In this document: piece by piece, positions 1-57,660 of the stretch
Layout of the letters: the number at the start of each line of letters is the position of its first letter
How positions within the stretch are numbered: the first letter of the stretch is position 1
NCBI GenBank assembly: GCA_051294375.1
Contig: CM119268.1
Coordinates: 6,329,525 to 6,393,524, forward strand
Length of the DNA stretch: 64,000 nt
From: Paraspadella gotoi
Taxonomy: Eukaryota; Animalia; Chaetognatha
Reading direction: 5' to 3'
Program-made: the position numbers and the translations under genes
The notes under the pieces: generated by a model
Told to the model about the DNA's origin: nothing
Seen by the model: only the letters and a program-made list of their open reading frames with translations
Databases searched by the model: none

Positions 1-1809
1 GATCGTCGTAATAAGTAAGCACGTAATCTAATCCTTTGTCCTGGAACTTCCCGTGCGGCCGGATCACCATGTTGGACATGTATCGGTGAACGCGAACATA
101 CTTTTTCCTGTGGGTGCGACGAATTATATTCGGTGGTAACTTCCCAATTTACTCCCCTTAGACGTACGATATCGGCTCCTTGGGATGTTCCACCCCTTTC
201 GACATGAGGACAGCGACGTTGTTCTCGCGATCGACGAGGAATCGGCGGACGTAAACGTAGTCTCGTCGACTCATCGGAAACGGATAGTGGGTCACCCAGT
301 GGACCACCTCCGATCCAGAGGCCCTGTCCCGGTCGATCACGTCCAAGGAGACGACGAGCTTGTCCCAAGCTAAAAAGGCAGGGATAGATTTGAAAAGGAA
401 CTATTGACGTGGATTTCATTCTTGAAGACCCCCTTACCCTTGCGGTATTCGAGATCGACTTGGATGAGATAAAATGCAGCGGCGGGGACGTCGTCCCATG
501 TCCCGAAAACCTTGTACTGAAAAAGTTCATCGTCGAAGATTGGGCGGCGCCAAACTTTAAGGTTCGGTTTGTCCATCACCGGCTCCCAACCTAATCGCGA
601 TTTTTAAGAAGATCGCGACTGAAATGGATAAGGCAATCAGCACATTACTTGCCAACCTTCAAGGCATTCTCCTGCAGCCAAGAAAGCCTCCGATGACGAG
701 ACGGCGGCCTGCTGCTGCTGCGCCGCCGATGGCGACGAGTGAACGTCGGTTTGAGAGGAACAGTTGGAATCCTGTGAAACGCCGTGGTTTCCATTGTTAT
801 TGCCATGCAACGAGATGACTCCGGCGTTGAGAACGTCGTCCTCTGGGGAGTGCGGCCGTGACGGCTGCTGCCCCGGCTGCTGCGTGGACGTCGCCTCTCT
901 CGACCTGCGCTCCATTCGACAGCGGGAGTCGAGGATGAGCTTAATGTTTTCCAGTTGGTGAACATCGTTCACGCAGTGAATCATGTCGTCATCGGAGATG
1001 CCGTCTTTGGCCCAGTGAAATAGACAGGCCGAGAGCATCGTTCCGCCAGCTGATCGAATCCCTAAGGGGGAAAGGTTTTGGGGAAAGGTTTAAGGAAAAC
1101 CAAATTAAGCCTATAAGAACATCCGTTTAATATCGTGACGAATAATAACTTGACTTAAAAGGAACTCGTCCTATGGGGACTGCCTCACACTCAGTGCTGG
1201 CGTCGCATGTGTCTCGCTCGATTCTATCTATCGAGCTCATTTCCGAGGAGATTACATCAAACTTGAACAATTTTGAAAACTCTTGCTGGCTTTTACTTCA
1301 TGCCAGAGATATTTTGACGAGCTTCTTCACAGCTCTCTAATGAGGGCTATACTTTTTTTCCGTAGAAACATTTCCTTTTCGACGAGTCTATAGCCTTTCC
1401 ATAATAACGTACCTACGACGGCCTCGTCGTCCATGATGGATCGAAACCGCGTGGCGTAACCGCGCATTACTTTTCGGACGGTTTGCTCCGAGTATATTTC
1501 GCGGTAGAGTTGAAGAATTTTGACGAGGCGCCGCACGCGAAGCGCCGCCACGGAGTGGCATTGCAAAGCGATCTCTTGCGAAGTCTGACGCCCACTTTTG
1601 GCGCTCGTTCGACCACGAAGCCAACACGTCAGACGGAAGTCGCGTCTTGGCCCAGCGGGGGAAGCGCGATGGAGACTGAAATTTAAAACTAATGTGTCAA
1701 CTTTCTCTCGTAACGGCTGACAGAAAAATCAATTGTGGCCTCACCATGACGCCTCCAACGAAGAACTGGCGTACGACCTCAGGAACATAACTGATTTCCA
1801 CGCCATCAT
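1..1809 (-). CDS. STARD7: START-domain phosphatidylcholine transfer protein (STARD7/PCTP-like), multi-exon, 3' end beyond window start
   Basis: Exons encode WEPVMDKPNLKVWRRPI..YKVFGTWDDV, EVVHWVTHYPFPMSRRDYVYVRR (START domain) and the N-terminal MQC..VAALRVRRLVKILQLYREIY segment typical of STARD7; GT-AG introns; likely ATG at 1809/1806. Confidence 0.85.
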
Positions 1810-2343
1810 TGACCCCGTCCTTAGCCCCAAGGATGATTAGTTTTAGCTAATTCTAGTCCGACGCTCATATTTTACATAATTTCAAAAAGGCTTAACAACT
1901 AAAAATCAAAGTTAATAATGAAATAATTAAATTCGGCTAATTTTTTTCTGGTTTTTTGTTTGGTTTTGTGTTTTTTTTTTAAACAAGAGGAAAAGATCGA
2001 GGCGGAGAAAAAAAAAGAAAATTGTAGTAACTCGAACGGAAACGCGACACCAGAAATAACTAATCATGTTAGAAGAATACGTACAAAAACAAAACTCTGG
2101 ATAAAACAGAAACTGGAGAATCGAAAATGAAAAAAAAACTTAGTTCGAATAAATAAAAGTGATAAAAAAAATAATTATTCGATGAATGAGGGTATCGCCG
2201 GAATCGAAGCTGCAAGGGCGATATGAAAGGGGGGGGGAGTTGCGTAACGAGTCTTTTGCATTAGCGGAATAGTTGCGTCTCTCCTGAAAGGGATCGAGGG
2301 TAAAGAGGGAGAGCGAGATCTTATGAAGCGACGACGGAGAAAT

Positions 2344-5300
2344 TCAGGAGGTGACCAGCACTCGTTCGGCCGAAGTCTCGACGCCGAACAAAATATCCGC
2401 TCGCCGCGAGATTAAATACATGAGGATCATGAAGAGCAAGAATTCCGCGAAGCCGACGAGCAGGATCGTCGCTTGTCGTCTGCGACGGTATTCAAATTAT
2501 TTGACTTTAATATTGTTTTAAAAAAATAAACTATCGAAGAAATTAATCGTTCGAAAATACTTACAATACGGACGGAACGAGGAAAATTCTGGCCTTCATG
2601 GTTTTTGGACTCCAAACAGATTCCGTCCAGGCTGCCATGGACTCGCCCAATTCAGGGTCGTACTTATATAGGAAATCTTCGTCGGCAGTTCGTATCGCGG
2701 GAGACAGAGCGGGAGTTAAACCAACGAAGGAAGTGACGCAGGTTCCGTTTCCTCCTGGAAAAATGATTTAGGAAACGCTAACAATGAATTCCAATTATTA
2801 ATAAATATCAAGATCAACAACACTTTTCGACTCCTTTCATTCGAGACCTTTTCCGTCGAGCAGCATCCAGTCATACACTTCGCCGTCGCATTCCTTAATC
2901 TTTCTCGTCGGCTCCAGATCTCCAGTGAATTTAGCGAGAAGGAGACTGATGAAGTAGGGGATGTTGTTTTGTGAGCGGTAGACGCCGACGTAGTAGGAGA
3001 ACAGGAAGGAGTGATCGGAGACTTTGTTTAAGTCACTCGCCACGGATAAAACCTGATTTTGAGGGGGGGGGAAGGTCAACGACCGTTCATCGCACGAGGA
3101 AGCCGTCGTTGACATTTCGTCTTGCCTGCTTGAAGAGAGTGCAGTTGGTGTCGAAGAAAAAGCACTCCACCAGTTCGTCAACAACGTCTGCGTCGGCCTG
3201 GACGTCTTCATCGGCTTCAACACCTGTCGTCAGGTTGACGATGGCACGCGCCGTTGTCGTCGCCACTTTTTGCAAGTTTGCTTAGTTTTGAAAGATTAGG
3301 AAATACTAAATTATTATGGCAACAAAAAAGATATATATTATGAATCTCAAAAGAACTACTCACCGACCAGAGCAGTTCGATACTCTGGCGTTGATTCAGG
3401 CAGATCCAAAAAACTATTATAGACTTTGTTGGTGAAATACTCCTGCAAAATAAATATACAAATATTTATTTCATAATGCGAATCCAGTAATGACCGCCAC
3501 TAACCTCGTGCTCAGCAAAGACGACACCCGAAAAATCTTTTTTCAGTTTCGTTGAAGCTTTAAGAAACTGGTGCAGCGAGGACGGCGGAAGTTGACCCTA
3601 AATTAATAAGAAAGAGAAAAAGTTTTAACACGACTTCTCTTTCGATGAATGGCTTTACCTTTCGTTTAGTTAGGGCTTACCGTGTTCCGGGTCAGCGTCA
3701 GATTAACGCTCTTCGCTGCGGAGTCCAGAGCGTCCATCGCCTCTTTTGTTCCGGTCGTCGCAGTCGCTAAATCGGCGAAAAGGCTCGCTCTAAAAAGGTA
3801 AAAACATAGACATAATCTTACAGAGCACACTCGTACATAATTGTGAAATGATAAATAAAAACCTTTCGTCTTTGATTCGGCCAAGCTGTGACAATTCTAT
3901 GTAGTGAGATACGTCATGTAATTCTACTGGAGCCCAGACGGAACCGTTAACGTCGGGCCACCGCGAGCCCTCCGCGGCGGTCATGTCGTAAAGGACCCGA
4001 GTGGATCCGAGGTAGTCGTACGCCTCTCCAGAGAACAAGGCGAAGATGACGTTTCGTCCCGCCGCACCAATCTGGGATGAAACACGAAAACTGCCAAATC
4101 TCCGCCTCAAATCAATTGAAATGTTATTAATTTCGCACCTTCGCTTCCGCTTTCTTAACGGCGTGGGCAGCGGCGAGCAGAGCCACGATCCCCGACGCCG
4201 GGGAATCTGCGCCAGGATACACGTCCTCAAAAAGGCTAAACGCGTCCATCCTCGCCGTCACCATTACCATCGTGCCTCCGACGGTGGGAACGGGGTGGGG
4301 GTTACGGAGGAAACCGAACACGTTCTTGCTGCCCAACGGATCGCACTAAAAATGAGGGATGAAAATAAAATTTTTACTAATTTCAAACAGAAAATCTAAG
4401 TTCAAAGCACATCGTGATAATATATACGTACATATGAGAATGACTAAAAAACTATGGCAGATGAGCTTATACGTCACCTGCATGTCGTAGCTTCCGGCGG
4501 AGATATCAAGCTTACGACTTCGCCTCAAGCAGCGATTCGTATTGACGCCTGCGAACATGAAGGAGTCGAGTTGAATACTGCACAAAGGATAAGTCTGTTC
4601 CGGCTGATTTTTGGCTTTTTTCGGTGAGTTGTACTTGGTGAAGCATTTGACGATCAAAAGATCGCGTTCGGTTTGATTTCTATTTTGATAGAGGAAAAAA
4701 AAAATCATTTAATTACAAAAATACTTTCAGTTCCCATGTCTAAACTTTATCCTTTCGACGACCTGATGAGAAAGATGGGAAAGGGGAATTCCCTGAAGGA
4801 TAGGCCGGATCCCGGCTGATTCCATCGATCGCAGGAGCTTTCCGGTCGGTCGCCGTAGAGTCCGTATTTCAAATTGGGACACGCGGCATCGGTAGAAAAC
4901 TCGACAGTCTGGTTTACGACTTCTTCGGTGCCGAGCAAGACAATCCCGGAAATGCGACCATTCTCGTGGGCAGTGACGAGTTGCTCCACGGTGGATTTGG
5001 TGAAATGGATCGGGGTCATCACAGGTATGTAGGGAGCCGCCGTGCCTGGTTAATGTTTTTTCATACGAAATTACATGCAATGTTTATCATAAAAGCAGAA
5101 ATGTACTTGGTAATTATTTCTCCGACATGAATTCTCTACCGTAGTATTCATTCAGTTAAAAAATTTAAAAATAAATTAAAATTTATTGAAAAATAATAAG
5201 TAAAATATAAATTTTATTAAAATTACGAGAAGTGATTTTTTTTAAATGAAGTACCCTACCGCAAAGCTGAATATAAAAAAAATTTAATATATTAAAGACT

Positions 5301-5956
5301 AATCTTTTTTCTTCTGATATTTTATATTCCAGAAAGGATAGCTGGATTGCCCAAATCCCTAAATTATGATCTTAAAATTACTAAAATATTTGATGAATGA
5401 CAATTTTATAATTCTGATGCTTTTAGATAAAAATCAATTTTCTTGTTTGGTTTTAGAACTTTCAAATTTAAAAAATCATATATCCTAAATCATTTGACCG
5501 ATTGTAATACAATTTAAATGCATTAATTTTTTTTAATTATTTTTTTAATAATTTTTAAAAATGTCTGGAATTTAAAGTTATAAAGTGGCGCGGTTTTTTT
5601 TTTTGTTTTTTTTTTTTGCACAGGAGTGTATGTTAGAGGGTGATTGTTGTATAAATTGTAAATAATAAAATCGCCATTCTACCCTGTCCCAAACTCGATC
5701 TACCTTTTCTAATAACGAAATCAACGTCGGCGTCGACATTCTCGAAGAAATGAACGACACCGACGTCGCCGTTGGGCGAAGACTGACAACCGACGACGCC
5801 GCCGGCGGAAAGACGCCGGAAGCATCCTTTGGCGTCAACGAGATCCACGTAGATTTTTGCTTTGGTGCGGTCGGCGACCGAGAAGGAGAAACAAAGTATG
5901 AGGAGGAGAACAACGTTCGTTAACCTCAACGAGGAAGACGGAGACACGTTTCTCAT
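2344..5956 (-). CDS. NCSTN: Nicastrin (gamma-secretase subunit), multi-exon
   Basis: Signal peptide then KIYVDL..CFRRL...VGCQS; VMVTARMDAFSLFEDVYPGADSPASGIVALLAAA; FALFSGEAYDYLGSTRVLYDM (DYIGS-like); WTESVW..ARIFL, a single TM helix and short tail ending ADILFG...VTS*. Confidence 0.93.
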
Positions 5957-6226: not shown

Positions 6227-7422
6227 TTATGTGTACAAGGCGTTCTTATTCGATTGTTTGTCCGCCCAAGCGGCGAGATCCCTTGTCATTTGCGGATTAG
6301 TCTCGTAAGCGCCTTCGAGTCCGAAGGCGACGCGTCCCAAGCGCAAGAGCTGCGCGAAGGAGGCAGCGGCCGCGGCGTCAAGCGGAGCCGGGGCGAAGGC
6401 GACGAAAGCGGCGGCCGGCGGATGTCGAGCGATTTCGCAGGCGGTGAGGAGCTGGGCGACGGCGCCGGTCACCAGATTTGGAGGCTCGAGCCGGGGAATG
6501 GGGCATGACTGTGACGAAGGGAAACAATGCTAGATCACTTATTGTTTAAAACGGTAATCAATAATTTTTTGTCTTACTTTCATTTCTGGGTAAGCGGCTG
6601 AAGTGGCGAGCGAACGGAGGTAAGGCGGATCCCCAGCCGAAGTTTCTGCGAGGTAGTGAACCGCGTTGATGCAGCTCAATGTCACCACCTAATAAAATGT
6701 GAGTAAAATGAGTGTAAATTTAATGTAAATTTAATGAGTCCCATTTAATGGCAATTAAATGGGACGCTAAGTCTAAAACAGTAAACAACTTCACAAAGGA
6801 ACCGGCTGAGTATTTAATTAATCTACTTATTTAATTAATCCTAATAACAAATAATGATAATTTAATGACATTGATGTAAAAACCGGCAGAAAAGTTAGCC
6901 AGACCTTAGCATCGTCGGTGAACTCGAGGCGAGAGAATAAAAGGCGCTGCCAAGACGAGAGCTGAGAGGGTAAGAGGGAGGCGGTGACGCGAGCCACGAC
7001 GACGGATGGGGACACGGGCAGTCGGTGTATGGTGCACGATGTTGAAGGCGAAAGCGACTTGGGCGGAAAGCGACCATCGGACTGCGAAAAGATACGGGTA
7101 AAAAGAGGCAACAAATATTTTGTCAATTTCCTTAACGACGCACCTCGGCAAAACCGGCGTTGATGATCGCCACTGTCTCGGCGTCCCGTCGCCACAGCAA
7201 GGCCGCATCGACGAAGGCTACGGCGGCTTCGCCGACAGCCACCACCAAAAGACCACAAGAGACTTGAGAGTGGCCGAGAACTGGATTCAACAACAACTCG
7301 CACTCCTTGGCCGGTGGAGCGGAAAAACCGGCGAGATCGTCGTCGTCCTCGTTTTCGCTGTCGTCGTCGTCGTCAACGGCTCGAGATGAGACCGGCAAAA
7401 TCTCGCCCCAAAATGAGGCCAT
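6227..7422 (-). CDS. PSMG1: Proteasome assembly chaperone 1 (PAC1), multi-exon
   Basis: N-terminus MASFWGEILPVSSRAVDDDD (cf. FFGEV..CRAG plus acidic run), LVVAVGEAAVAFV, PRLEPPNLVTG.VAQLLT.C and C-terminal NALYT (cf. NIYT). Confidence 0.85.
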
Positions 7423-7798: not shown

Positions 7799-9669
7799 TC
7801 AATTTTCATCGATTTCTCTTAGATAAACTCTTTGCATGACGGGCAAGAGAAGCTTGAAGGCACTCTCGAGAGAGTCGGCGGCGCGGGATGATTCGAGGAA
7901 GGCGTCCGTCATAAGTTGGTTCACCTCGATCGATGATTCCGTCGCTTCTATAACCGTAAGCGTCTGGGAAATTCGAATACGTAGAGATTTTATTTACCAA
8001 CTTTTTTCCACAGTTTTTGCTCGTTCAAAAATGATTTACCTGAGCAAAGGCGGCGGCGACGGCATCGCAATCGGCCTTGGCAATCTTCTCCACGGCAACC
8101 AAATGATTGATCCTTTCGAGGAATCCGTCGAGGTTCTTCGATCGCTCGCGGCCACCCGCTTCCGCTTCCATCAACGCCATCTCGCCCACCTTGTGAAACA
8201 TTTCTACGTTTCGCGCGGCGAGCGAGGCGAGGTGGCGAATGCAGTCGCGATGAGCGTCTTTGGCCGAAGGTGACGTCGACTTCGAGTTAGTTTCTTCGGC
8301 ACCGGACGCGGTCTTGTCCCTCGACGCGGCGTCTGCCATCTTCGTCGCTGCAGAGATGGCCTCGCTACGAGCTTCGATCAATTTGTTCGGGGAAAACGCG
8401 ACCCCGAATTTTCCGAGGTGATTGACGAGCACCTCGGCTGCGACGTCAACACCGGGCGACGATGTCGAAGGTTCATCGTCGTCCTCGTCATGTAGAAAAA
8501 TGTCTTTAATAGCGACGAGGCTGGAGTCCAGATCGGCATCCGGTCGATCGGAAAGAACGTCGACGATTTCGCGCTCGATGCGAGAGTGAAGAAGCTCCAG
8601 CGCCTCAACGTGAACCATTCCCTGTAAGGAGGAAAGAGAGAGAGATCGACCTTGCGTAAAATCAAAACGGTCCAGTTTCTACGACCAGCGTACCTCATAT
8701 TCATCGAACCAGTGCTCGAAGGTATCTCGCTTTCCCTTTAGAGCCTCGTCGGCCGCGGCCTCCTCCAGCTCCTTCGTTCGCCTACCCTCGCGCAAAAGCT
8801 TCGAAAGGGTGGGACCGCGGCGGCGATCCTCAAAGATCGTTCGAGTTCTTTCGAACTGAGGGTCTGATTCCTAAAAAGAAAATACGAATACTTAATCAGG
8901 AACGATATCATCGTATATTTTGATAGGTTGTACTCACCTTCAGCACATCCATCGTCTTTCTCCCGACTCGCTCTAACACGTTCAAACTACCCTCGACTAA
9001 TCCCGAGACGCCAAGCGAGAATCCGACGCCAGTAATGGAAGACGCGGAAGAAAAAATACCGGAGGCGAAAGAAGCGATCCCGGAGTCGTCAACGATCGGT
9101 TTGTTTTGGGCAACTTCCCGAGGACAAGTAGCGTCTTCGACGGGCGACGATCGAGCGCTGACCATTGCGGGCTGCGCCTCCACCACTGGCGGAGTATCGA
9201 TACTCGCTTCCGGAGCATCTGATTCGTCTTCTCCCATTTTCGCGCCGTCGGCGAGCACGTTAAGTCCCTCTGCTACTTCCGTTGACAACTGGGAGATGGA
9301 ATGGGAGGCCGTGGAAAGGATGGACGCGCCCCAGGTGGACCAGGACGATCCCCATCCAGACGCGGGTTGTGAGGGGACGGCGGTTGGTGAAGCTTTGAGG
9401 GGTATTTCGGGGGCGGATGTCGAAGGTGGAATGGGAGCAGTATCAGATTCGGACTCTGCGACCTCGGCTGCATCGAGAATAGAGGGCAAAGCCACTTCAA
9501 TAATATTTTCGGCGGCGACGGTTCGTGTTTTCACGGAATCTTTGGTTTCAACGTCGCCTTCACCTTCGATCACGGCGAAGGTTTTAGAGGTCAACGGAGA
9601 AGGGATTTCATCTTCGTCGGCGCTTTCAAAGGCCTCGTCGCCATCGTCGTCGCTATCGTGCGTCGACAT
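7799..9669 (-). CDS. FAM114A2: FAM114A/Noxp20 family protein, multi-exon
   Basis: FESADE N-terminal motif, GWGSSWSTWGASILS (WG motif), GSLNVLERVGRKTMDVL, HVEALELL, and last exon LMTDAFLESSRAADSLESAFKLLLPVMQ. Confidence 0.85.
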
Positions 9670-10073: not shown

Positions 10074-13000
10074 TCAAGGATCGATAACAATAGGCTGCGG
10101 GTCCTCCTGCGACTTGGGTGACTTGGCCTCGAATTGCGGGGCTGGCACCATGACCCGCGCGAGGAGATCTGGTTTTTCAAAGGATTTGAGATCAAAGATG
10201 ATCACGTCGCGACGCTTTCTCGCGGAGGTGAAGGCGAACTGTTTGCGTAACTCGGCGAGACCCGCGGGCGAGGTTCCGGCTAAGATCGTGAACCGAATGG
10301 AAGCATCGAGGAGAACGTCGAGGCGACCTGGGAAATTCATTCGGAAAAAGGAGAAAATCTTAGTTTTAAAATTTACCAATTTTCTTCCATCTCTCCCTCA
10401 GAAAAAAAAAACTGTTTCCCTTTACCGGCTTGATAGCACAGGCTAAGATCGGCGCCCCGATGAGTTACCACCGGCTCCTGGTGAAACATGAGTCTCTCCC
10501 GGCGTAGGAGGCCGTCGAAGGCGGGAGCCTCCCTGAGAGCGGAAGGAACGGCGGTGACGGCGCCGCCCGTGCCGCTACGGAAGGCGTAGACAAACGTGGC
10601 GCCGGGAAAGGCCCCTTCGGGAAGGGAGCAAAAAAACTCTGCGCCCCAGGCATTCAAGTCGACGAAAATGAGGTGACCCACGCGGGCAGCGGCGAGTTTA
10701 GATTCTGGTGACGGAAGGGGCCCGAGATTATGACGGGGACAGGCGGACGATTGGACGGGAGAGGGAGTGAGAGAGGCAGAGCCCGAGTCGTCGCTGAGTC
10801 TCAGGCGTTTTAGGTTTTGATCGTTAAAAAATGAATCCAAGAATCCGTCGCCGCCGCCGTCACCGGGACAGCGACAACCAACGACCACTCCCGATCTCTC
10901 GTGGCTCTTCCGCTTTCGGGCATTTGCGACGGTGAAATGATGGGGATGTTGCTGAGGCTGTTGATGTGACTGATGATGATGAGGGGCGTCGACGGGAGTA
11001 TGAGCCGAGGTCGAGTTGAAGAGGATCACGTCATTGGACATGTTCTGAAACGAAGAGAGAAGAGAAAGTTGCAAAGGCTAAGGCCTCACAGCCAATGCAT
11101 CCCAACTTACCAAGTCCTCCTCCTCGACGCTTCCCACCATCATGTCAAGGGGACATTTGGTGATCATCCAATTTCCGATGGACTCGACGCTGCGCTTCCA
11201 CTTCCGCTGATGCATGGTGACGGCTGTGGATGAGCGGCGCGAGTCGCTGGGTCCGTCCATGCCGAGAATCTCGATAGAGTGATCACCGTCGGGGGGCGGC
11301 GGAGTCGCTGCTGTTCGGTTGAAATAATTAAGAATAAAATTTCCTTACTTAGAAATAGTATTAGAAATTTAAATTTATAAATAGAAAAAGAAAGAGAAAA
11401 TACACTAATGCAATAATTATAAAAAATAAATAATCATTCTACCGATGAGATAATAAAATAATACTGACCTTTGACTCTGTCAACGATTTTTCTGACCGCT
11501 TCTTCCCGCTTCTCTTTCGTCGCGGTTTCCTCGTCTTCTTCGTCGTCTTCAATGACCACGACGTCTTCCCTCTCCGCTTCGCCCTTCCTCCTCTTCTGAT
11601 GGATCTTTCCGACGGTTCGCTCCTCTTCCTTGCTCCCTCCCTTCTCCCTCGACCTTCGCTCGCGTTGAGGCGCAGCTTCGTTGGACTTCAAAAAAATTCC
11701 CGTCGAGCGAAGACGATGACTCCGTTCACGTCGTCGAGCCCCGATTCCGTCGGAAGTGGCGCTCCGAGGCGAAAGGCGTTGGAGGCTTTCGGCGCCGGCT
11801 TTGGCCTTTTCGATCTGAAAATCCCCGTCGTCTCGGAAGGCTTCGGTCTTTTCTCGATTGGGCGATCGAATCAGCTCTCGCTCGCTTCGCGGTGAATCTT
11901 CCTTCTTTCCCTTGCACAATCCAGATTTAAATTCTGGATTCGAGTTTCGCTTCCCCGTGTCTTCGGTCGACTTCGGAGAGCAATTCAAGGGCGGGCTGGT
12001 CGAGGATGGACGGGTGAGACTCGCTTCGAGCGACTTTACCTGAAGATTGTTACGTTTAAAAAACAAATTACGCAATATAAAGATATATATATTCATTATT
12101 CATTAGTCTTTTTTACTCACCTCGCGAGAACCTAAGATATCAGAGCCGGGAGTAGAATTATCCAGTCCAGAAATCAAGGGCTTGGTTCGTCGCCTCGCGG
12201 AAATTCCGCCCTGGGTTTGCGGCGAAGTCGGATCAGAAACGGACGGAGATGAGAGGCGCGACGATCGGGGTTCGAAGATGTCGACGGAGGCTTCTTCCTC
12301 AACGGAGAGATCGATTAAAACCGTCTCGACCCGACCTAAAGAATATCACAGCAAAACTAGAGCATTTTTAAAGAGTATGTAAAAAAATAACAAAACCCTT
12401 TAAAAACTAAAGTCAGTAAATTCACCTTTCCCCTCGAGTTGATCGGGCGACCCGGATGGTTTCCGCGTCAAAGGATGCTCCTCGTCCGCTGTTTTTCGTG
12501 AGGTCTGAACGTCGCCTTCTTTGGGAGGTTTGACGTCGACGATCTCGGCCACTTCGTCGCCCTCAGCGTCTTCTTGGGTTTCACGAGGTCGACGGGGGCC
12601 TCCGGAGTGAGCGCCCTCGACCTCCGCCTCAGGTCTACCGTTATACTTTCCCCTACCTCGATCAGTCGTAGATGAGGATTTGTGGTCGCGATCTGCCCCG
12701 TCGACGAGCGCGACGGAGCGAAAGCGTTTGGCTGCGCGAATTGGGACGGGCGGAGAGGCCTTACCGAGATGGATTCGAGAAGGGGAGACGGAGACTTTTT
12801 CCCGGTTTTTAGTCGGAGAGGAAGAAGATTTAGGCCCGCTTCGTAATGGGGAAGTGGGGACCCCGTTGTTTCTCAAAGCAGACGATTTAACGCGACTTCG
12901 AAATGGCGAAGATGCGGGAGAACCTCTTCTTCGGTTTTTAGTCGGCGAACCGGCGACGCCGTTTTTTCTAGCCGAGGAGGGGGACGCGTCGGGATTCCGA

Positions 13001-13446
13001 CAAGCCAAAGAGGGGGATCGTTTTCTATAAGGCGAAGAGACTTTGCGGCAGGTCGGCGGGGATGATTCTCTCGACGTGGGGACGGCTTGGGTTTTAGAAG
13101 AGGACCGGGTGGGATATTTGGAGCGGTGTGTGGAAGATAGCGGACAGGCGCCTCGATTGATAAGGATATAGTCAATATGTTTGCATAAAGGATGACGATG
13201 ATTGACAATGCAATAATGCTTTGTCAAATGTGAAGAAGAGCACCAACCTGCGACGATTCTGTCCTGATCAACGTCCACTTCCACGAGAAATGATACAGGT
13301 AATGACTGTTTCGATGACAATGATCGACGCCGGCTGGAACTGATCCCGAAAAAAAAGTAACGTTCTAGCACTGCTTCAGTGCTACAGTATTTTCCCAAAC
13401 TAACTCACCTGCGTTGAAGACTTATTTTTTCCGACCCTAGACTCAT
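10074..13446 (-). CDS. Protein with long disordered S/P/R-rich region, several SUMO-interacting-motif candidates and a C-terminal ZNF451-type PIN-like domain
   Basis: HLIFVDLNAWGAEFFCSLP...TFVYAF...GADLSLCYQAGRLDVLLDASIRFTILAG..GLAELRKQF aligns by eye with the ZNF451 C-terminal PIN-like domain (IVFVDFDNW..FF..LP..TFIWGF..AADFAICMHAGRLDEQLP..IPFTILSGD.GF.EL..QF). 5' exon structure approximate. Confidence 0.7.
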
Positions 13447-40557: not shown

Positions 40558-43020
<2,463 letters not shown>

Positions 43021-45743: not shown

Positions 45744-46192
45744 TCACGAGAGTTGCGCCTTAAACTCGTCCGCTTCGAGAGCGTGAAAAGCTTTTGTTCG
45801 GTTGATGTCGTCGAGATATTCGGTCCCGATGCAGCGACGATTCGTCACGGGATCGACCGTTGTCCCTTTCGGAAAAATCACCTGAAAGTCAAATACAAAT
45901 CTTCCAGCGTTCTTTCGCCGAGATGTCAACGAGTTCCAAATTAAAAAAAAACCTTATGCACGGTGTGTCTGACGTCAACGGCGTGTTCTTGTGGCAACTC
46001 TTTGATGAGCACGAGGTCGCCCTGTTGACAGGAATTGTCTTGATCCAGCGCCCAAAGCTCGGTAGATTCGTTGAAGTGTTTATTGAGTTTAGCGTTGAAG
46101 ACCATGTGGACCACCTTCACTTTAATGAAATCGTGTCTCTTACCCATCTGTACTTTAGCCACTTGCAGCAAGTGGCGAGTTACGTGAGCCAT
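45744..46192 (-). CDS. MRPS17: Mitochondrial ribosomal protein S17 (uS17m), 2 exons
   Basis: KVKVVHMVFNAKLNKHF..LWALD...CQQGDLVLIKELP..VRHTVHK|VIFPKG..VDPVTNRRCIGTEY. Confidence 0.88.
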
Positions 46193-46360: not shown

Positions 46361-48942
46361 CTACGAATCTCTCATCAGAGCGTCAATCTCTTTCATAAAT
46401 TCGTCATAGGCATCTTCTTTAACTCTGGCGATTTCACTAGAATTTTGTTGTCTTTCGTTGCCTTGAGCGCTCCACATACGCGTCCCCGTATTCGGCATGC
46501 GTCCCCCACGGACTGACGACGGTTCTCGTTTTATCTGAGAGAAAGACGAAACCGTAGGGAAAAAAATAATAAAAGTATAGTGATCTCGCCTGACGTTACT
46601 ATCAAAACAAGTTTGAGCAAACAATGTCGGATCTGCCCACGATCATTATCGATAATTAATTAACTAATTTAGTAATTCAAGTTTATTAATTAATTAAGCA
46701 ATTTAATAATTTATGTTAATTAATTAAATAATTAGGCAATTAATTAAATAATTTGATCCCAAATGTTTGTTTTTAGAACTTTTTATCACTATGATAAAAG
46801 CAATGACGACGAATCAGAAGAAGCAGCGACGGAAAAAAAGAGAGAGAGCGACATATAATTAAAAGAGAGAGAACGACATATATTTAAAAGTAAGAGATAG
46901 AGAGATAGAGAGCTGGAAAGCCACTGCAGAGTTGAACACTTCTATATATATAATTGTTTTGTATGAGTGGAGGAATATGAAACAACAATTTAAATAAAAG
47001 ACCTCAATGATGAGAAGCCATACCTAAATTTTTAACTTCCTATGGTTACACACTCGAGCTATTTTCAATGTTTAAACAGCATAACATCGACGACGGCACG
47101 AAACAATACTAAATGGTTATCTATGCCCAAGACGGGCTTAAAACAGTGACGAGATAAAAAAACCTCAAACCTCAAACTCAACAATATCCCGAGTACCTTA
47201 AGCGCGGTGGGCATAAACCTCATAACTTCAGGGTTCACTTTACGAAGCTGCGGCGTGGCAACGATCGTAGCCGCGTCGCGCCGCCGCTGCTCCTCCCGTC
47301 GCTGATGCAGCGCCGTTATCCGTCCGCGCTGTCGAGGCAACTCTTTCAGCGGATCCTTGAGCAAGATCGGATCCGTCGGTTTTGGACAAAGAGTGCTAGG
47401 GAGAGAAGGCGGCGGCGGAACGGAAGGCAAACGGAGCAAAATCGAGGGAGGCGGAAGACCTTTTGGGGGACCCGGGGGGATCGCGGGAAGACCTTTTGGG
47501 GGACCCGAGGGGATTGCGGGGAGCGGGAGCCGGGGAAGAGGGAACCGTGGCGGAGGAAGGGATGGAAAAGCCGGCGATTCGCAGGCGGGCGGTGGACCGG
47601 TGGGAGGTAGAACGTGAAACACCGTAGCAGTCGGTGGAGGCGGTCCGAGCGGGGGCAATGGGGAAAACGCCGGCTGCGGGGGTCTCGGAGAGGCCAAATC
47701 GGAAAGCGGAGAAGCGGTGACGGGCAATGCGTCGTCTTTAAACGTAACGCGGAGAGAAACGTGACTGCATGAACCCATAAAAAAAAAAATTGAAACGAAG
47801 AACTCTCCGTCTTAATTAATTTTTCCACTCGACGCACCTCGAACCCGCGGCGCGTTCCACGATCGTCTCCGCCTCGATCAACTGCTGCTCGCGCAACAAA
47901 GCCCGCGCGATGGCCTCGCTGAGGTCGTCTGATTCGTCCAGTGGGGGCGGGTCGCCCGGAGGAGGGCCCGGAGAAAGACGAGACGACCGATTGCCACGGG
48001 CGACGCGAGAATTAAAAAACCGAGTGGCGGTGGCGTTGGAATTGGCGTCGCGGTCTGGTCGCTTCAGAATGCCTGAAGACGAGGTTTTCTTCAACTATCC
48101 TGAATCAAGATCGACCCGACCATCATCGCACCCTTAGATTTATTTTGTTTAGAACTCCTCGTGGGTTTCTTCGTTTCCTTCTTCTTTCTTTTTCTCTCGC
48201 TTCGTCCCGATGACAAGAGCGGCGGAGCCATCATGTCCAGCGGCATCGGGATGGCGTCCACGGTGACTCGCTGCGCCTCTTTCACCGCTTCGTAATAACG
48301 CTGTTTTTCCCGGCGTTTGTGCTCGTAGCTGGTATTAAGAAAGTTGTCAAGTTGCCAAGATAATTTTAGAAGTTCTAATTCACTTATCGAAAAATATCAA
48401 AAGTTATATCTTTATAACTAAGTTTACTTTTTTTATTGGGTAGTTAATTGCAATTATTGCGTTGCATGTAAAAGAGAAAAAATTAACTCCAACAAAGATA
48501 AAAGAGGCAAAGAATATATTTCCACACCTGACAATGATATCCCTGATTTCGGGATAGTGAGATGGTTCTTCCCGCTGATAAAATCTCATGATCCTGTAAA
48601 GGGTGTCCATGAGTTTTTTGCGTTTCTCCTTCAAAGTTTGTTCGGCTATGACAGGGAGATGAATCGGGTCGTACTCGACTGCGTCGAGACTTTCCAACTC
48701 CGCCACGAGCAGTTTGGGATCTTTCCCCTTCATGGCCAAGGCACGGACCTGGAAAAACCCGGATTTTTTTTGGGTGTTTTTTTATTCCTTTCAGAAAACT
48801 TATTCCCTTCCCTACCAATTCTCACCATCTGACGCTGCTTTTTGTTTCGCTTGAGCTCTCTCTTCCTCGCAAATTTTCTTGCTTGATCAGTGGGATTCAT
48901 GAATTTCCCTCCTTTCGTACAGTTAACAGGACGTTTTCCCAT
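46361..48942 (-). CDS. WBP11: WW domain-binding protein 11 (Npw38BP/SIPP1), multi-exon
   Basis: MGKRPVNCTKGGKFMNPTDQARKFARKRELKRNKKQRQMVR, PGPPPGDPP, LRVTF (PP1-docking-like), proline-rich region, ATIVATPQLR..RFMPTALK, DAYDEFMKEI. Confidence 0.95.
46570..47158 (-). mobile_element. HINE/DINE-1-like element in last WBP11 intron, containing a fragment of the second family
   Basis: aaaagtatagtgatctcgcctgacgttactatcaa start, shared core, degenerate end gtgacgagat; aacaagtttgagc... fragment at ~46606-46770. Confidence 0.72.
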
Positions 48943-49509
48943 TTTGCTTCTCTTTTTAGGAGCGAAAATTTTAGTTATTTGTACTTGGTAGTCGTTAACG
49001 GGTTGTGGGTTAAAATTTATTGGGCATCGCCTCTATTTTACACTTGTAAATCCTTGAAATTGGTTGGACCGTAACTAACGAAGAAATGAGTTGAAATTTT
49101 TAATAAGTAACCTCCTGCCAGCAAAGATAGGCGCTTTAATTGGAAATAAGTTGAGATGGTTACCCTAATTATTCATAACATCGGTTTATATAAGTTCAGT
49201 TGAGAATGAACATAAGGCAACTTGGCTGACTTCTTAGTGATAGGAAATGTAAATGAGATTGAACTCAATCTCATTTGAAATAATTCACAAATTAATCTAC
49301 TACAATACTATCGAGGTATTTTGAACAATGAATATTTTGTTGGCCTTCCGTTGACAAATATGAAACTAAAACCTCACTAATTCGTTATCGAATTAAAAAT
49401 TTAACGATAAAATTGGAATTTAATATTTATCAAACAATCAAAATGTTCCATCACAAAACAGACTTTTATTCCGACTGTTATCTTTGTTTTAGCTTTAAGA
49501 ATTATTAGT

Positions 49510-52500
49510 TTATCTCCATGAGCTAAAAGATGATCCACCGCCGCCACTGGCACCGGGAGACGCAGGGGAACCAAACGGCGCCTGTTGCGTGCCGGATCCG
49601 AACGAGGCCGGGGCCGGCGAACCGAAGGGGGGCGCCCCGGATGTAGCGGCGCTACTGAAACCGCCAAAAGAGGGATTGGAAGCTCCGGCGATGGAACCAA
49701 AGGTCGGGGCGTTGGAGGCGAGAGCGCCGAAGGACGGCGTTGATTGGTTCGCGATGGAACCGAAAGCAGTCGTGGTCGAAGCGGGAGCTAAAATTAGATG
49801 AAATGCAGATTGATTCAGCGTTAAAAACTATCTAGACACCGTTACGCTAACTAATATTTAAATTTATTTAAAATACTGATACACAATCCATTTTCGTTTA
49901 CAAATTCTCATTGCTCATAAAATGTGATTAACTATTCTCACCGGTTCCACTTCCAAATATTTTACTCGGCGACGTCGCTCCGAAAACCGGGGCTCCGCCG
50001 AATCCCGAGCTGGCGCCGAAGGCGGGCGGAGATCCGAAGGCTGTGCCGGCGAAAGCTGGCGCAGCGCCGAAAGCCGAGCCCGAGGACGACGTGGGAGTTT
50101 TGGGTGGAGAGGAGAGGGCGCCACCGAAAACTCCTTGAGAGAGAGAAGGTCCTCCGGTGGAGAAGGGACCCGACGGTTTGGCAGTGGTGCTGACGGAAGA
50201 TCCGAAACCGCTGGCCGAGGCGCCGAAAAGACCGGGCGTCCCCGTCGAAGTCGTCGGGGTTCCAAAGACACTGCCGGTGGTCGCCGCGACGCCAGCTCCG
50301 AAAGGATTCTTGTTGGCGCTCTCTGCGGAAGCTTGACCGCCGAGGCCAGAAAACATTCCGCCTCCGCCTCCAAACAAGTTGCCGGAGGAAGTGGAGACGG
50401 GCGCGGGACCAAAAATCGAGCGCGCCGCCGTCGATGGAGTCGCGGATCCAAATGCAGATGGCGCGGCGCCAAAGCCAGATGACGGCGCTCCGAAGACACT
50501 AGTCGTCGCGGGTGTTGACGTTGAGGGCGGTTGGCCAAAAACCGTGGACGTTGTTGTCTTTTGACCAAAGAGTGCAGATGTTGATGCTCCAAATACTGAT
50601 CCTGTCGCTGTGCCTCCACCAAACACTGAAGACGAGGTTGAGGCGGCTGGCTGGCCAAAGACTGGAGGCTGGAGACAGGAGTGGCTCCGAAGCCTAATGA
50701 AGCTGTTGTAGAAACAGCTCCAAAGGCGCTAGGGCATCACTTGTGGTAACTGCTCCAAACATGTTCGATGCAGCCGTTGATGAGGCCGCCCCAAAAAGAC
50801 TGGGCGCAGCTGTTGTGGTGGCTTGGCCAAATATACTGGGTGTTCCGGAAGTGGACGTAGCACCAAAAACACTTGAAGCCGACGTCGTAGATACACCAAA
50901 CATATTGGTTGCTGCCGTTGTGGAGGCTGCTCCAAAAATGCTCGGTGCTGCAGTGGACACTGCACTGAAAACAAGGGGTGTTTGAGACGAAGGTGCAGTG
51001 CCGAATACGGTGGGGGCCGCGGTTACGGGGGCTGCGCCAAAGACGTTAGAGGCTGAAGTAGAGGTCGCCGAGCCAAATTTAGGCGGTGCGGAGGATGCAG
51101 CGCCAAAAAGCGATGGCGTCGTGGACGACGACTGCCCAAAAACCGGAGCAGAATTTGTCGTCATTGGACCAAAAATTGAAGAGGAGGACGACGAAGAGCC
51201 GAAGGCAGACTTAGCCCCAAAGACAGACGTCGCCGTCGTTGAGGACGTGGCTGGCTTGGCAAACACCGACGCCGATGCGCCGACCATAAGCGAGGAAGAC
51301 GAGGAGGACAAAGTCGATGTAGAGAGAAGCGTCGTGGACGAGGCACTGGAAGTCTCAGGCACGGATGTCAAAGGAACAGTGGCGAGAGAGGGAGCAATGG
51401 TTGTTGAGGTTGCGCTTGCGGGCGCTTGTCCAAATACGGACGCGGTGGCAATGGACGCAGAGGAGGTCGACGAAGGCGCTAAGGATGTTGCTACTCCAAA
51501 GACCGAAGGATGGCTTGAAGAAAGCGTTGTGGATGTCGCCGCCCCGAAGACCGAAGAAGGGTGGCTTGAAGACAGCGTTGTGGATGTCGCCGCCCCGAAG
51601 ACCGAAGAAGGATGGCTTGAAGACAGCGTTGTGGATGTCGCTGCCCCGAAGACCGAAGAAGGGTGGCTCGAAGATAGCGTTGTGGATGTCGCTGCCCCGA
51701 AGACCGAAGAAGGGTGGCTCGAAGACAGCGTTGTGGATGTCGCCGCCCCAAAGACCAAAGAAGGGTGGCTTGAAGACAGCGTTGTGGCTGTTGCCGCCCC
51801 AAAGACCGAAGATGGATGGCCCAAAGACAGAGTTGTGGATGCCTCCGCCCCAAAGATGGAAGTGCTCGATGAGAGCGTGGAAGACGTCGCGACTCCGAAA
51901 ATTGAAGAAGGCGTGGCAGAGGTAGGGGCAGACGACGGCACGGAAGAAGGGGCTGAAGAGGGCGAGCCCAATGTTGAAGATTTCAAAGTGGTCGAAGAGG
52001 AGGAACTGCCCAGTGTTAAAGAGGAAATAGAAGACGAGACAGGTGTCGTTGTTGTTGACTTAGTCGCGACTCCAAACACGTTCGAAGGTTTGGTAGTTTG
52101 GCCAAAGATAGTCGCGGCGCCGTCGCCAATCCCGCCGCTCGATGATGAAAAGGTAGACGACGAAAGAGTCGAGGACGAGACGGAGCCACTGATGCCAACG
52201 CCGGTAGGGATCGAATTCGTCGCTTTCGGTACGAAGAGGGAAGAAGCAGCGGCGTCGCCGGCGCCAACTCCCAGTCCGGCGAAACCGGCGCCCGATGGTT
52301 TGGCCAAAGCGGCGGAGACGGAAAAGGTTTGACGAAGAGGCGGCTTGGTCGACCCAGAACGAGATTTCGGTTCGTCTGAGGAATAAATCCTTAAGTTAGA
52401 ACATAACTAAGATTACACAATTATAATTATATAATTACATAATCGATAGGTTGATTATTATTGTTTTATAATTTTCTGAATTTTTACCCTTGACACCGGC

Positions 52501-55500
52501 CAACGCTTTGGATTCAGCTTCTGAAATCTGAGCCTCGGGTAAAAGATTAACTCCAGCGAGTTGTGCGTCCGATTCTGTAGCTTCTGGTTCTTCCATATCC
52601 TGTTTTTAAAAAAATATCAATCTTCAAACATGCAAAATAAACCCTAAACGTAAAAATACATCGCGCTGATATACGTGACCTTCAAGGCTTGAAGCGCCTC
52701 CGGATCCAGAGCCTGGCCGAAAGCGGGAGTGGATCTCCCTGAAACCGCTGGAGACTTAGAGAAAGTGGGCGTTCCAGAAGGCGTCGCAGAGGATGGCGTC
52801 TTTTGACTTGTAGCACCAAAAACCGGAGTCGCCGGTCTAATATTAAAATTTGTTTTTTATTTTTTATTATTTTTTTTTAGAAAAAATATTTACGCAAGAA
52901 AGAATGAAAAAAATTCCTAGATAAAATGAAAAAAGAAGAGAAGAACATCTGTGCCCATCACCTGGCGGCGCCAAAAGTAAAAGCGGCGGAAGGAGTGGTA
53001 GCGGGCGTTTCTGCACGCGATTCTGTACGCGATTCAGATGCATCTGAAAGGGAAAAGGACAAATAATAAAACATTTCTTTACCATGGATCTTTGAAAAAT
53101 AAGAAATCTTGTATTGAATTGTCACCTTTGCTTTTGCTATTTGTTTCTATACAGAGATCCACGCCAGAACCAAGAATCGGCGGCGGCGGCGCCATTTTAA
53201 TCGGCGTGCTTGAAGAGAGGCCACCAAAGGAGAAACTGAAGTTTAAACCCGAAGTCTTCGCGGGAGAAGCGGCAGCAGCGACAAGGGCGGCCGGAGAACC
53301 TGCAGCGGCGACAGGAGCAGTAAGGCCAGCGCCAGCGTTTGACGATGTGGGCTTAAAGGAAAACGCCGGTACCGCAGGGGCCGTAGAAGAGGTCGTCGTG
53401 ACGGCACCGAACCCAGTTTTGAAAGCGCCTTCTGTCTTGAATTGTCCTATGACGAATTTCGAAGCGGCTTTTGGAGTCGCCAAGACGGAAGCCTTGTTGA
53501 CGGCATAATCAGCCTCTGTAGATTCTGACTCGGCTGATTCGAATTTCAACGACTGTGGTTTCGAAGTTACGCTCGAGAACGCCCCCGAGGCCGGGGTGGC
53601 AGTTGCCGCCGCCGAGCTCGCGAACCCGAACGTTCCCGATGCAGTAAATTTGGGAGTTGACGATGAAGACGAACCGAAGGAAAACGTTGGCGGCTTAGAG
53701 GAGGAAGCTAAACCAGAAGGCCCCGAAAATACCCCGGATCCGGCGATATCGGGCGCCGTTCCTCGCGACGAAGCAACGCCGAATGATAATTTCGGCGCCG
53801 CCGAAACCGCGGGAGTCGATTTAATCGACGCCGGAACGCTGGGCGAAAAAGCACCGTTAGAAAGAGGCGTTGTGGCCGCTTCCTCGTTCTCCTTCTCGGC
53901 GGCCAAGGCCGCCCGGACGCGGCTAACAGCTGTGGCGGATACAAGACGGGACGCCGCCAAATCTCCGGACGCAATGTGCGATTTGACAACGGGGACTTTT
54001 CTCTTACTCAAAGACTCTCGTAACTTGGCTACGCGTTCGGGAGAAAAGACGGGGCGACGGAGTAATGTCGAAGAACGTTTGGTAGACGCTTGACTGAAGG
54101 TGGCATCGCCGGATCCCCGAGCTGCTGAGGATTTGGATGAAGATTCGAGATTGAGAGATTTTACTTGTTCACGGAGTTCGGAGAGGGCGCGATTTTGGAG
54201 AACGATCGTCTGGTTGTTGTTCCTTGAATAGCGAAATATCAAAATTTACTCGATTAATTATTGTAATAGTCATCAAGTTAAACGTAAAATCAAAATGGAG
54301 AAAAAAATGGGTCGAACCTTAATATAGTAAAAATAGAAGCGAGAGTCAAACAAGAACTCTCCGCCGACTGTCCCCGCCTCTGCCGCCGCTTCATCTCTTG
54401 CGTGGCCTTCCATTCTGCGTCAAGCAAAGTCGTCACGTCGTCAAGTTTGTTCTCGACGGAAACATAGGCATCGCGAATCTCCTTCATTTTGCGACGTGTG
54501 CTCGGGTCGAGCGGCTTGTTGCGCAGCAGGCGGAGGTATTCCGGGTCGCGGTCGTTGTCGACGCGTTGCTTGGCCTGGTCGCCCACGGAGAGCTGCTCCA
54601 TCATCTGATTATAAATCGGTAAACAATAAGTCTTTAGATGATCTTATTCACAGAATTGTCTTCATCAACGAGTTGAAAAGACAGACGAAAAGGTTTTTGA
54701 GTTAATGAGAGATATACCTTGTTTAACTTTCTGACTGTGTCTGTATTTACTATTTTTCCTACGATAACTTTTAAAACTGGGTTTAGCTATTCAGAGGTTT
54801 TGACTTACCCTTATCAGATGACAATGTAAAAGGACAAAATGCGTTCAAGACTTTCAAACTCCCGACGCCACTCACTTGCATCTTAACGGCGTGAACGTCA
54901 AGATTCAAATCCTTCATGCTACACTTGACGTCGTGGAGGAACTGGGCCGAACGCGCCGTCCGACTTGCCAAAGCCTTCATTTCCTTCTCGTCACCGACGC
55001 GGGCATCGATATCCGCCACAAATTTTTTGTGATCGAGCATTTCGCGAGCGAAGTGCGCCAACTCTTCAGCGATGGCTGCGGCGAAAGTTGCATCGGCGGC
55101 GGGCGACCCTCGACGAGCAAATTGGGAAGAGTCGACGGAAAGCGGGTCGGGTTTAGATCCGAGAGTCGACGGAGCTTTCGGCGTTGAAGCGCGGGTCAGT
55201 CGCGCCGACAACGCTTGCGCGTCACTTGAGATCGTAGCTGTTGTTTTCGAAGGGGCGACAGGCGACGGAGCTGCCTGAGGCGTCGATAAGATTGTCGACG
55301 AATTCGTCGACGGCTGCTTCCCCCAGCTGATCGTGAATGGTTTTGCGTTGGAAGTTTCGACGGTGGGCGTCGATGGATTTTGGGCTTTGACAGGAGTCGC
55401 TTTAGACGTTGTCCCTAACAGATGGGGAAAGCTTACCCCTGGTGTCGTCGACGGCGCCGGCTGTGTGGGAAACGGCTTGACCGGAGTGCTAAAAGTCGGG

Positions 55501-57660
55501 AGTGTGGACGGATTTTTCGGAGGAGTCGTGAAACGGGCAGACGATGAGTCAAACGAAGGCGGCGCCTTAGTACCGCCGGCGCCCCCAGAAACGATCGCTC
55601 TTAGATCTGCCCGCTCTCTGACGGCGCCGCCCTCGACGGGCGAAGCGGCAATGGTCGCCATAGCCGATCCAGGAATCGCGTTTATCATGTGAAAGGGCGC
55701 GAGCACGCCGTCCGTCGAGAGAAGTATGAGGATTGGCGACGCCACGTGATAAATGTTGTCACCTAGAGCAATTTTGGAGGTGGCGGTGGTGTCGATGGCG
55801 ACGCCAATGGGCAAAGTGTCAGCGTCGGAGTCGCTGAGAGGAAGTTCGGCTCGACCTGAAGATATTTTGATCGTTGATTTCTCCAGAAAAAGTGCAGGAA
55901 GAGTTTTGTTTTAATTTTAATATGGGCTGGTTAAGAAATGAATACTCTAGAATAGTAGAGCTTCGTAGTAGAAAAAAGAAATAAACTCGCCTTCGTCTGG
56001 AAGGAACCATCGCTCGAAAAGGATCTTATCTCCTGGATGTTTTCCCAGAACCGAGGATTCGAGGGCGTTGTTCGACGAACAGACGATGACGTTCCAATCG
56101 GCAACGAAACGAAAAAAATATTTAGAGGGACGTTCTTCACAAGCGCCGAAGCAGACGTCCTGAACAGAAATATAAAAGAAGCTATGCGTGACAAGAAAAC
56201 GGAAAAGAAGACGGTGTGGACGAACATATCAAACACGCAACCTCGGTCAAACCACTTGACCTTAACAACCTGACCCCGCTCGGTTCCCCCAGTTTATATG
56301 TGGTCAAATCGTTGACCTTTGTAAATACCATTGTAATAGACTTAGAATCTGAGCATTTTGATTGTTATTGTTTATAATCTTGTTGAAGAATAAATCATTC
56401 TTGATCTGAAACTTGTGTCGTCCATAACGGGAAAGTTTTTTTGTTTTTTTTAAATAAAAATAAAATCAAAACGCCTGGGTTTCCACCTGATAGTCAAAAT
56501 ACTTGACAGCCTCGTTCTTGGCGGCGGAGACGGCGATAAGACGAGGCTGTTCCTCGTCGGGGAAGGCGACGGCGGCAAGGAAGAAGGTCGTGGATTGCCA
56601 GAAGACGTCCACGATACCGGTGGAGTCCGGTGGCGCCGCGATGCGCTTCTTCTCCATCAAATCAGGGCTGAACTGAATCAGGCCGCCCGTCGACGAAGAA
56701 CCAACCACCAACTGCTTGCCTGAAGACAAATTACCAAGTACGAATTGGGATTTAAATCTTTAACTTCTTCATTTTCATCGTATTGTTTTACCCTTTGGAC
56801 TCCAACAGAGGCAGTTAGCGTCGACGTGCTTGGCGCCGACGATGACGGTTCCGGCAAAGTCCTCGAGAGAGTTGCCCGCCTGAATCACGCTCACTTTCCC
56901 GTCGGATGTGGCGTAGGCGAGAGTCAAGGGTTGAGCAGGGTTCCATTGGAGGTCCTTGAGACGCACGTCGTCTCCGGTGCAGACGAGGTTCAAATTGAAC
57001 CACGACAGCGACTCTTTTAACAGAGAGGGTCGAGAGAGAAAGAATGAGAAAAAGGTGAAGACAATCTTAGATATTATTTGTAGAATCCAAAACAGAATCA
57101 AATCCGGTCCACTCCAATCCAAAATTTTCTCACCCTTATCTTTTCGCGAAAAATTTCTGACGTCAAAAAAGTAACATTTCGTGTTTGGTCCAGTTTGGAA
57201 GACCGCGGCCAAAGTGAGGTCGTCGCAACTCAGGGCCACGTGAAGAACTTCTGTGGCATCGGGGACGCGGAGAACGGCGATGGGCCTGGCCGGTGAGTCC
57301 AGGGTCAGGCGAGACGACTCGGTACACGCCCCTTCATGAAGGAGAGATTTCGTCTGAGAATCGGGGAGAGGAAGAACGAATGAAGTTCGAACAGAGTTAT
57401 ACCTCTATCCAATGTCTCTCCCGACATTCATTAATCTATTTTCAGTTTTATAGATAACAATAAAAAGCCCACGTTCCCACCTCGAATATCTTGATTTCGG
57501 CAGTGGAAGTCCCGACAAAGACGAGTCCGTATTTGTTGGAGACACACAGAAGACTGAGTCTCTGAGCGGGGAAGGAAGGGAAAGATGGGCCTACCCTGGC
57601 CTTCGCGACCCCGACGAATTTAAACTGTTTTTCCTCTCTCTCTGGTCCGGGTTCTGCCAT
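49510..57660 (-). CDS. NUP214: Nucleoporin NUP214 (beta-propeller, coiled coil, FG repeats), multi-exon
   Basis: SLLCVSNKYGLVFVG, LSCDDLTL, CLCWSPKGKQLVVG, RAELP, ILLSTDGVLAPF, IAEELAHF, YLRLLRNKPLDP, many FG/SVFG repeats, NKNPFG, PTFGSIA, C-terminal FSSWR. Confidence 0.95.
51490..51860 (-). repeat. 51-bp coding minisatellite (SSVFGAATSTTLSSSHP, ~7 copies) in NUP214
   Basis: gaagacagcgttgtggatgtcgccgccccgaagaccgaagaagggtggctt repeated at 51-bp period. Confidence 0.93.

Follow-up and report, generated by a model that had tools for sequence, protein, structure and literature searches.

Operons have been described in a handful of animal phyla, where they mostly contain two to nine genes, the largest of C. 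elegans having about eight. In chaetognaths, 18% of genes lie in operons, which were defined by a spacing of less than 250 bp, and the longest comprises nine genes, including ribosomal, ubiquitin, and proteasome genes (PMC12460157). Chaetognath leader sequences have been described (PMC2481426 and PMC2566580). Oikopleura operons were defined by a distance of 500 bp or less (PMC11067885), and the trans-splice sites of Oikopleura are unpaired AGs, usually followed by A (PMC6389100). The median intercistronic distance is about 1, 30, and 100 bp in Ciona, Oikopleura, and C. elegans, respectively, and Ciona operons contain up to seven genes (PMC7986045). Dimorphilus gyrociliatus has a compact genome in which operons and leaders are absent according to an assay for transposase-accessible chromatin (ATAC) and 5' untranslated region (UTR) analysis (PMC7854359). 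We analyzed a 64-kb stretch of the genome of the chaetognath Paraspadella gotoi (assembly GCA_051294375.1, contig CM119268.1, positions 6,329,525 to 6,393,524; here called the window), which carries a block of 15 co-oriented housekeeping genes from NUP214 to STARD7. The reading that we favor, with moderate confidence, is that this block consists of one or more operons of the spliced leader type, in which long polycistronic RNAs would be resolved by leader trans-splicing.

Gene models were constructed over the whole window from exon edges read by hand, snapped to GT-AG or GC-AG boundaries with the frame kept open. Thirteen of the 15 block genes were modeled, 12 as complete open frames and NUP214 as far as an assembly frameshift, whereas for WBP11 and STARD7 the individual exons were checked instead. 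An ab initio gene finder was discarded because it predicted too many introns. A preliminary description had placed all 16 host genes, i.e., the block and the upstream sugar transporter gene (GLUT), on the minus strand, and this was confirmed by the gene models and by Pfam and PDB names. The 14 stop-to-ATG gap lengths that it gave were identical on recomputation: from NUP214 to STARD7, they are 567, 168, 192, 270, 268, 279, 338, 294, 2091, 870, 404, 376, 270, and 534 nt. The median is 316 nt, with 12 gaps below 600 nt and 10 below 500 nt. The block models contain 97 introns (median, 83 nt), and GLUT is separated from NUP214 by 4132 nt. At its other end, the block is truncated by the window edge within STARD7. 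The longest plus-strand open reading frames (ORFs) that are not antisense to an exon, at 20731-23851, are part of a retrotransposon-like insert within an intron of COPB2. The genes are as follows.

61793..64000, minus strand: GLUT/SLC2-type sugar transporter, 3' part, the upstream neighbor of the block (Pfam Sugar_tr on two exons).
49510..57660, minus strand: NUP214, first gene of the block (Pfam NUP159/214 propeller; gene model).
46361..48942, minus strand: WBP11 (Pfam Wbp11; exon frames).
45744..46192, minus strand: MRPS17 (Pfam Ribosomal_S17; gene model).
43291..45551, minus strand: CCDC22 (Pfam CCDC22_N and CCDC22_CC; RNA contig).
40558..43020, minus strand: adenosine kinase (ADK), 7 exons, 360 amino acids (aa) (six RNA joints; homologues; Pfam PfkB; gene model).
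37861..40289, minus strand: HSPA14-like Hsp70 (Pfam HSP70; gene model).
36819..37581, minus strand: BTB-domain gene, 234 aa (Pfam BTB).
32413..36480, minus strand: ankyrin-repeat and SOCS-box (ASB-like) gene, 12 exons (Pfam Ank and SOCS_box; nine RNA joints).
29361..32118, minus strand: TTK/MPS1 kinase (Pfam Pkinase; best PDB match TTK, E value of 2e-15).
14317..27269, minus strand: COPB2 (Pfam WD40 and TPR_COPA_B; homologues; gene model).
10074..13446, minus strand: 903-aa gene with a C-terminal PIN_11 domain (Pfam PIN_11, E values of 8e-5 and 0.036, on the last two exons).
7799..9669, minus strand: FAM114A-like gene (Pfam DUF719; gene model).
6227..7422, minus strand: PSMG1, proteasome assembly chaperone 1 (Pfam PAC1, E value of 1e-9).
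2344..5956, minus strand: Nicastrin (Pfam Nicastrin and Ncstrn_small).
1..1809, minus strand: STARD7-like START-domain gene, cut by the window edge (Pfam START; exon frames).

The RNA evidence consists of contigs of one run, X1, placed on 31200-51199, a region that includes 8 of the 14 gaps (NUP214 to TTK). Run X1 has the properties of spliced RNA from this species: it contains 0.70 of the sequence words of 48000-57700, and all 15 splice joints listed, of 43 in total, have CT..AC borders, corresponding to GT-AG on the minus strand. The 567-nt NUP214-WBP11 gap (48943..49509) is crossed whole by a spliced contig (pieces 49942-51199 and 48824-49787), in which the last intron of NUP214 is spliced out and the sequence then runs unbroken into WBP11. 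The same contig bears on the explanation that gene order and orientation are an assembly artifact. The window does contain a 100-N gap, and the RNA contig has one extra base relative to the assembly at each of positions 50666 and 50731; these single-base insertions explain the broken NUP214 frame, and the differences are probably assembly errors. However, this independent contig is colinear with the assembly over NUP214-WBP11, the gene models are intact, and the gap sequence is ordinary and unique. We consider an artifact extremely improbable.

Read-through would also extend from HSPA14 through the BTB gene into the ASB-like gene. The ASB contig, 3752 nt long with a depth of 335.5, extends 1410 letters beyond the ASB ATG on the upstream side. 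The depth value of 335.5 reappears at 37866 and 38320, in HSPA14. In the ASB bins, the depth agrees with exon-only cover (e.g., 251.5 observed for 500 nt at 335.5), indicating that depth arithmetic there is good to about 1 base. By this arithmetic, the ASB contig most likely also contains BTB and the final two exons of HSPA14 but omits about 330 letters of gap sequence. Of these, 197 fall in the BTB-ASB gap, as given by the depth deficit of bin 36536-37202, and one of three single-intron fits to this deficit is the following.

36576..36771, minus strand: putative 196-nt GT-AG splice in the BTB-ASB gap.

The deficit can also be fitted by two other single introns and by four combinations of two introns. 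The splice from 36771 to 36576 would excise the AATAAA of the BTB gene and join BTB and ASB RNA. Such a skip would not arise from DNA in the library. The HSPA14-BTB gap shows another skip, of about 135 nt, for which no GT-AG or GC-AG fit was found with donors from 37800 downward; this skip lies in a masked T-rich stretch.

Fully spliced contigs across gaps, one of them apparently spliced within a gap, would also result from co-transcription without a leader, yielding di- or polycistronic mature mRNAs or cis-spliced conjoined transcripts. However, De Bruijn assembly loses short leader tips where a longer read-through path exists, so that gap-crossing contigs are expected under a leader model too. 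In addition, AATAAA lies 39 to 76 nt past the stops of three block genes, and long polycistronic mRNAs are unlikely in animals, where translation depends on the cap. We consider leaderless products improbable.

Across the region covered by RNA, one of the eight gaps is crossed directly by a listed spliced contig, and we infer two further crossings. About 160 of the 192 nt of the MRPS17-CCDC22 gap are under contigs, the depth of the WBP11-MRPS17 bin is compatible with one bridging contig or two, and the CCDC22 contig extends to about 43070, 50 nt short of the ADK ATG. No evidence was drawn from the uncovered stretches, which measure about 80 nt from the ASB contig to the TTK contig, about 30 nt in the MRPS17-CCDC22 gap, about 27 nt in the CCDC22-ADK gap, and 30 to 111 nt in the ADK-HSPA14 gap.

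The spliced leader reading has to be weighed against a set of observations that count against it, several of which point to monocistronic genes in a compact genome. In that case, short promoters belonging to each gene would overlap the upstream 3' UTRs, the strand run would be a chance extreme, and the contigs would stem from leaky termination or read-through. The preliminary description had put the rarity of the run at 2^-15, which is overstated; this is a per-window figure, and the strand run alone is therefore not extraordinary in a large scan. For a genome of 15,000 to 20,000 genes and a same-strand probability of 0.5 to 0.55, 0.2 to 1.2 same-strand runs of 16 are expected by chance, so that the run counts only jointly with spacing, gene content, and RNA. 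Dimorphilus provides a precedent for such a genome (PMC7854359). A contig spanning two genes need not represent one transcript, as read-through occurs between genes with their own promoters too, and the RNA evidence is a single run, in contigs only, whose RNA status is a guess. None of the three runs listed for the window is recorded as RNA; of the other two, X2 gave no contig on the region examined and X3 gave two short ones, which is uninformative.

AGs after U-rich tracts are present, and a matrix derived from the cis-acceptors of the window, scored against dinucleotide shuffles, found AGs in every gap. The best acceptors near the ATGs were not above the shuffles, which reached the observed mean in 73 of 300 and 172 of 300 cases, and the score was individually significant in only 1 of 14 gaps (HSPA14-BTB). 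Because the shuffles preserve U-richness, this result is unfavorable to trans-splicing or at best neutral. AATAAA is found in 6 of the 14 gaps, and U/GU-rich words are enriched, as at any poly(A) site. The word TTTTGTTA has seven copies in 6 of the 14 gaps versus one copy in 8.4 kb of short introns (Fisher P of 0.0075, uncorrected), mostly just ahead of an AG, and is so placed in five consecutive gaps. It failed a multiple-word null and may simply be the downstream element of ordinary poly(A) sites.

Separate promoters would, however, require 15 of 15 broadly expressed genes to stand head to tail with no head-to-head pair, and compact genomes commonly have such pairs among their housekeeping genes. 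Several gaps of 170 to 570 nt are also mostly covered by RNA contigs. No promoter word recurs across the gaps, in that none of 10 promoter words was found in more than 3 of the 14 gaps and a single 7-mer, TCTAGTC, was barely above the shuffle null; this neither shows nor excludes promoters. Individual promoters are a real possibility, although the less likely one. The shorter word CTAGTC occurs on the minus strand at 46202, 43176, 14252, 9895, 7716, and 57962, i.e., in 5 of the 14 gaps and upstream of NUP214, and is absent from short introns. There is a loose resemblance to TCTAGA, the word of internal promoters in Oikopleura (PMC6389100).

The leader itself was sought at transcript ends, and one contig end coincides with a possible acceptor.

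32198..32200, minus strand: AG followed by A, candidate trans-splice acceptor, 80 nt upstream of the TTK ATG, where the TTK contig begins.

The first aligned base of the TTK contig, 32198, is an A directly after AG, as is usual at Oikopleura trans-splice sites (PMC6389100), and the 9 unaligned letters that precede it give a weak hint of a leader trace. However, this stub apparently does not end in G, compared with 85 of the 97 donor exons of the block, and an adapter, an error, or an indel could therefore account for it. No leader sequence was seen in X1 contigs among the loose ends listed (the set is swamped by repeats and contains 185 more), and contigs cannot fix a 5' end. An Rfam search of the window returned no matches. 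A metagenome scan for ADK yielded 80 loci, 2 of which (L001 and L003) fall in the sister clade of the window ADK. The transcripts of these two showed no clear leader and, in a comparison by eye, no match to the chaetognath leaders given in the available text of PMC2481426. The 5' ends of the two (approximately L001:41-48 and L003:71-78) have the word CACGTGAGA in common and a similar stretch before it, with divergent coding regions.

Under the spliced leader reading, the block more probably represents two to three long units than one. The strongest support is for a unit of nine genes and 28 kb from NUP214 to TTK. The TTK-COPB2 gap measures 2091 nt, contains a repeat, and has five AATAAA signals in its first 400 nt, and the next gap measures 870 nt; these features make a nine-gene block with one or two more units likelier, and both gaps are natural places for a break between units. 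That one promoter ahead of NUP214 drives a single intron-rich polycistron with 15 or more genes over at least 58 kb is rather doubtful. The preliminary description had proposed one polycistron of about 58 kb or a few abutting ones from NUP214 to STARD7. Its co-transcription component is partly backed by the RNA contigs between NUP214 and TTK, but nothing favors one unit over two or three. On the upstream side, five AATAAA signals lie within 170 nt of the GLUT stop, and GLUT is probably a separate transcription unit. Between GLUT and NUP214, one cluster of sites was found.

58258..58452, no strand assigned: four TCAYGTGA (E-box type) sites in 195 nt, 600 to 790 nt upstream of NUP214.

These are four of the six distinct sites of the window, and 2000 shuffles gave at most two per 200 nt. 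The cluster is a plausible candidate for the head promoter of the block. It may also be part of a mobile element, as its region has a CpG observed/expected ratio (o/e) of 0.66, similar to that of the window's retroelement. The 14 gaps contain no TCAYGTGA, which is uninformative since 0.2 would be expected. Just downstream of the cluster, at about 58060-58140, is what we take to be a possible mobile-element end. A 107-codon ORF on the minus strand at 60145-60468 has no Pfam match and is presumably a LINE remnant.

Under the favored reading, the polymerase would initiate upstream of NUP214 and read through along the block. Each gene would be cis-spliced and then cleaved for polyadenylation, and the downstream RNA would be recapped by the leader at an AG just beyond the 3' end of the upstream gene. 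Molecules that occasionally escape this processing would give rise to conjoined and sometimes gap-spliced RNAs. A unit of 9 to 15 genes with about 100 cis-introns would test how an animal polymerase can sustain repeated 3' cleavage and recapping without termination. A single unit of at least 15 genes, if real, would have an unusual length among animal operons and could mean that an animal has directional gene clusters like those of trypanosomes.

The CpG content of the window separates coding sequence from retroelement sequence. The coding CpG o/e is 1.26 to 1.50 in all 13 models, versus 0.63 to 0.68 in the retroelement, and it is 0.49 to 0.77 across three repeat or retroelement segments. CpG-rich coding sequence and a CpG-poor retroelement are the pattern expected from transposon-only methylation, and this composition suggests that gene bodies are unmethylated. 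Transposon-only methylation has been linked to trans-splicing phyla, a link that a referee of the same paper judged weak (PMC12460157). One interspersed repeat, with copies also in WBP11 and COPB2 introns, is not CpG depleted (1.29 to 1.34 in three copies).

27480..28960, no strand assigned: interspersed repeat in the TTK-COPB2 gap (self-BLAST).

The preliminary description had labeled this repeat a HINE. Self-BLAST placed its copies among 17625-18488, 27485-28876, and 46562-47094, and the RNA-run depth over the WBP11-intron copy is 6200. Intron 1 of the ASB-like gene is filled by a high-copy repeat (within 35300-36340; depth of >1500; CpG o/e of 0.49), and a small high-copy hairpin repeat lies inside the NUP214-WBP11 gap at 49240-49300. 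The retrotransposon-like insert (19550-23850, plus strand) is inside a 5.1-kb COPB2 intron and has a weak DUF1758/aspartyl protease match (E value of about 0.004). It is CpG depleted, adjoins the 100-N gap, and is flanked on both sides by a 94-nt direct repeat; we take it to be BEL/Pao-like.

Several of the block genes have features of their own. The search for ADK homologues ranked 12 meta-omic proteins, at 69 to 77% identity, above any species-named protein, and quick trees of 64 and 40 rows placed the window ADK in a clade with meta-omic proteins and no species-named member. COPB2 encodes 1769 aa versus about 900 to 1300 aa in most relatives among the matches listed, and a COPB2 exon showed identities of 72% or less among the 120 matches listed. 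Its last exon (14317-17211, minus strand) is open over 964 codons, acidic, and of low complexity, with recurring F/W-ESDDDE words, and a Pfam search with this exon gave no match. NUP214 contains a tandem repeat of about 50 nt at 51467-51917 (minus strand) encoding SSHPSSVFGAATSTTLS units. Two GC-AG introns occur in the models, in TTK at 30060 and in nicastrin at 3125, both on the minus strand. ESM Atlas matches to PSMG1 were weak and of the PAC2 type, and the ESM Atlas yielded nothing usable for the PIN_11 gene (10074..13446), which we assume to resemble ZNF451. The STARD7 orthologue name is likewise our assumption from likeness, the N terminus being of the animal type.

As far as checked, the locus resembles the spliced leader trans-spliced operons of animals, and no defining feature failed; since the leader was not seen, membership in this class is not established. 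Kinetoplastid directional gene clusters share the long same-strand runs of unrelated genes, which are resolved by a leader there. These clusters are genome-wide and nearly intron-free, whereas the present block is an intron-rich animal locus (97 introns with a median of 83 nt, as given above). The SL2-type operons of C. elegans have about 100 nt from the upstream 3' end to the acceptor, with a U-rich element, and here TTTTGTTA stands before AG in five consecutive gaps. The tunicates Oikopleura dioica and Ciona, with a single spliced leader, are similar in their head-to-tail housekeeping genes, unpaired AG acceptors (candidates only in the present block), and possible internal promoters (PMC6389100 and PMC11067885). 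Compared with the tunicate distances and gene numbers given above (PMC7986045), the present block has 15 genes and longer stop-to-ATG gaps, although UTRs occupy much of these gaps. Dense genes, short introns, and short intergenic regions are shared with D. gyrociliatus, in which leaders were excluded, whereas contigs cross gene boundaries here (PMC7854359). We found no report of an animal operon of more than nine genes, or of this locus, in the literature outside subscription papers, and the available parts of three PDF supplements of PMC12460157 do not name the block genes. In chaetognaths, leaders were sequenced and operons validated, in contrast to the present block with its unseen leader (PMC12460157 and PMC2481426). 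The operons described in P. gotoi itself (PMC12460157) and in Spadella (PMC2481426) nevertheless consist, like this block, of same-strand, short-spaced, broadly expressed genes, and chaetognath gene bodies lack methylation (PMC12460157), as the CpG pattern suggests for the genes described here.

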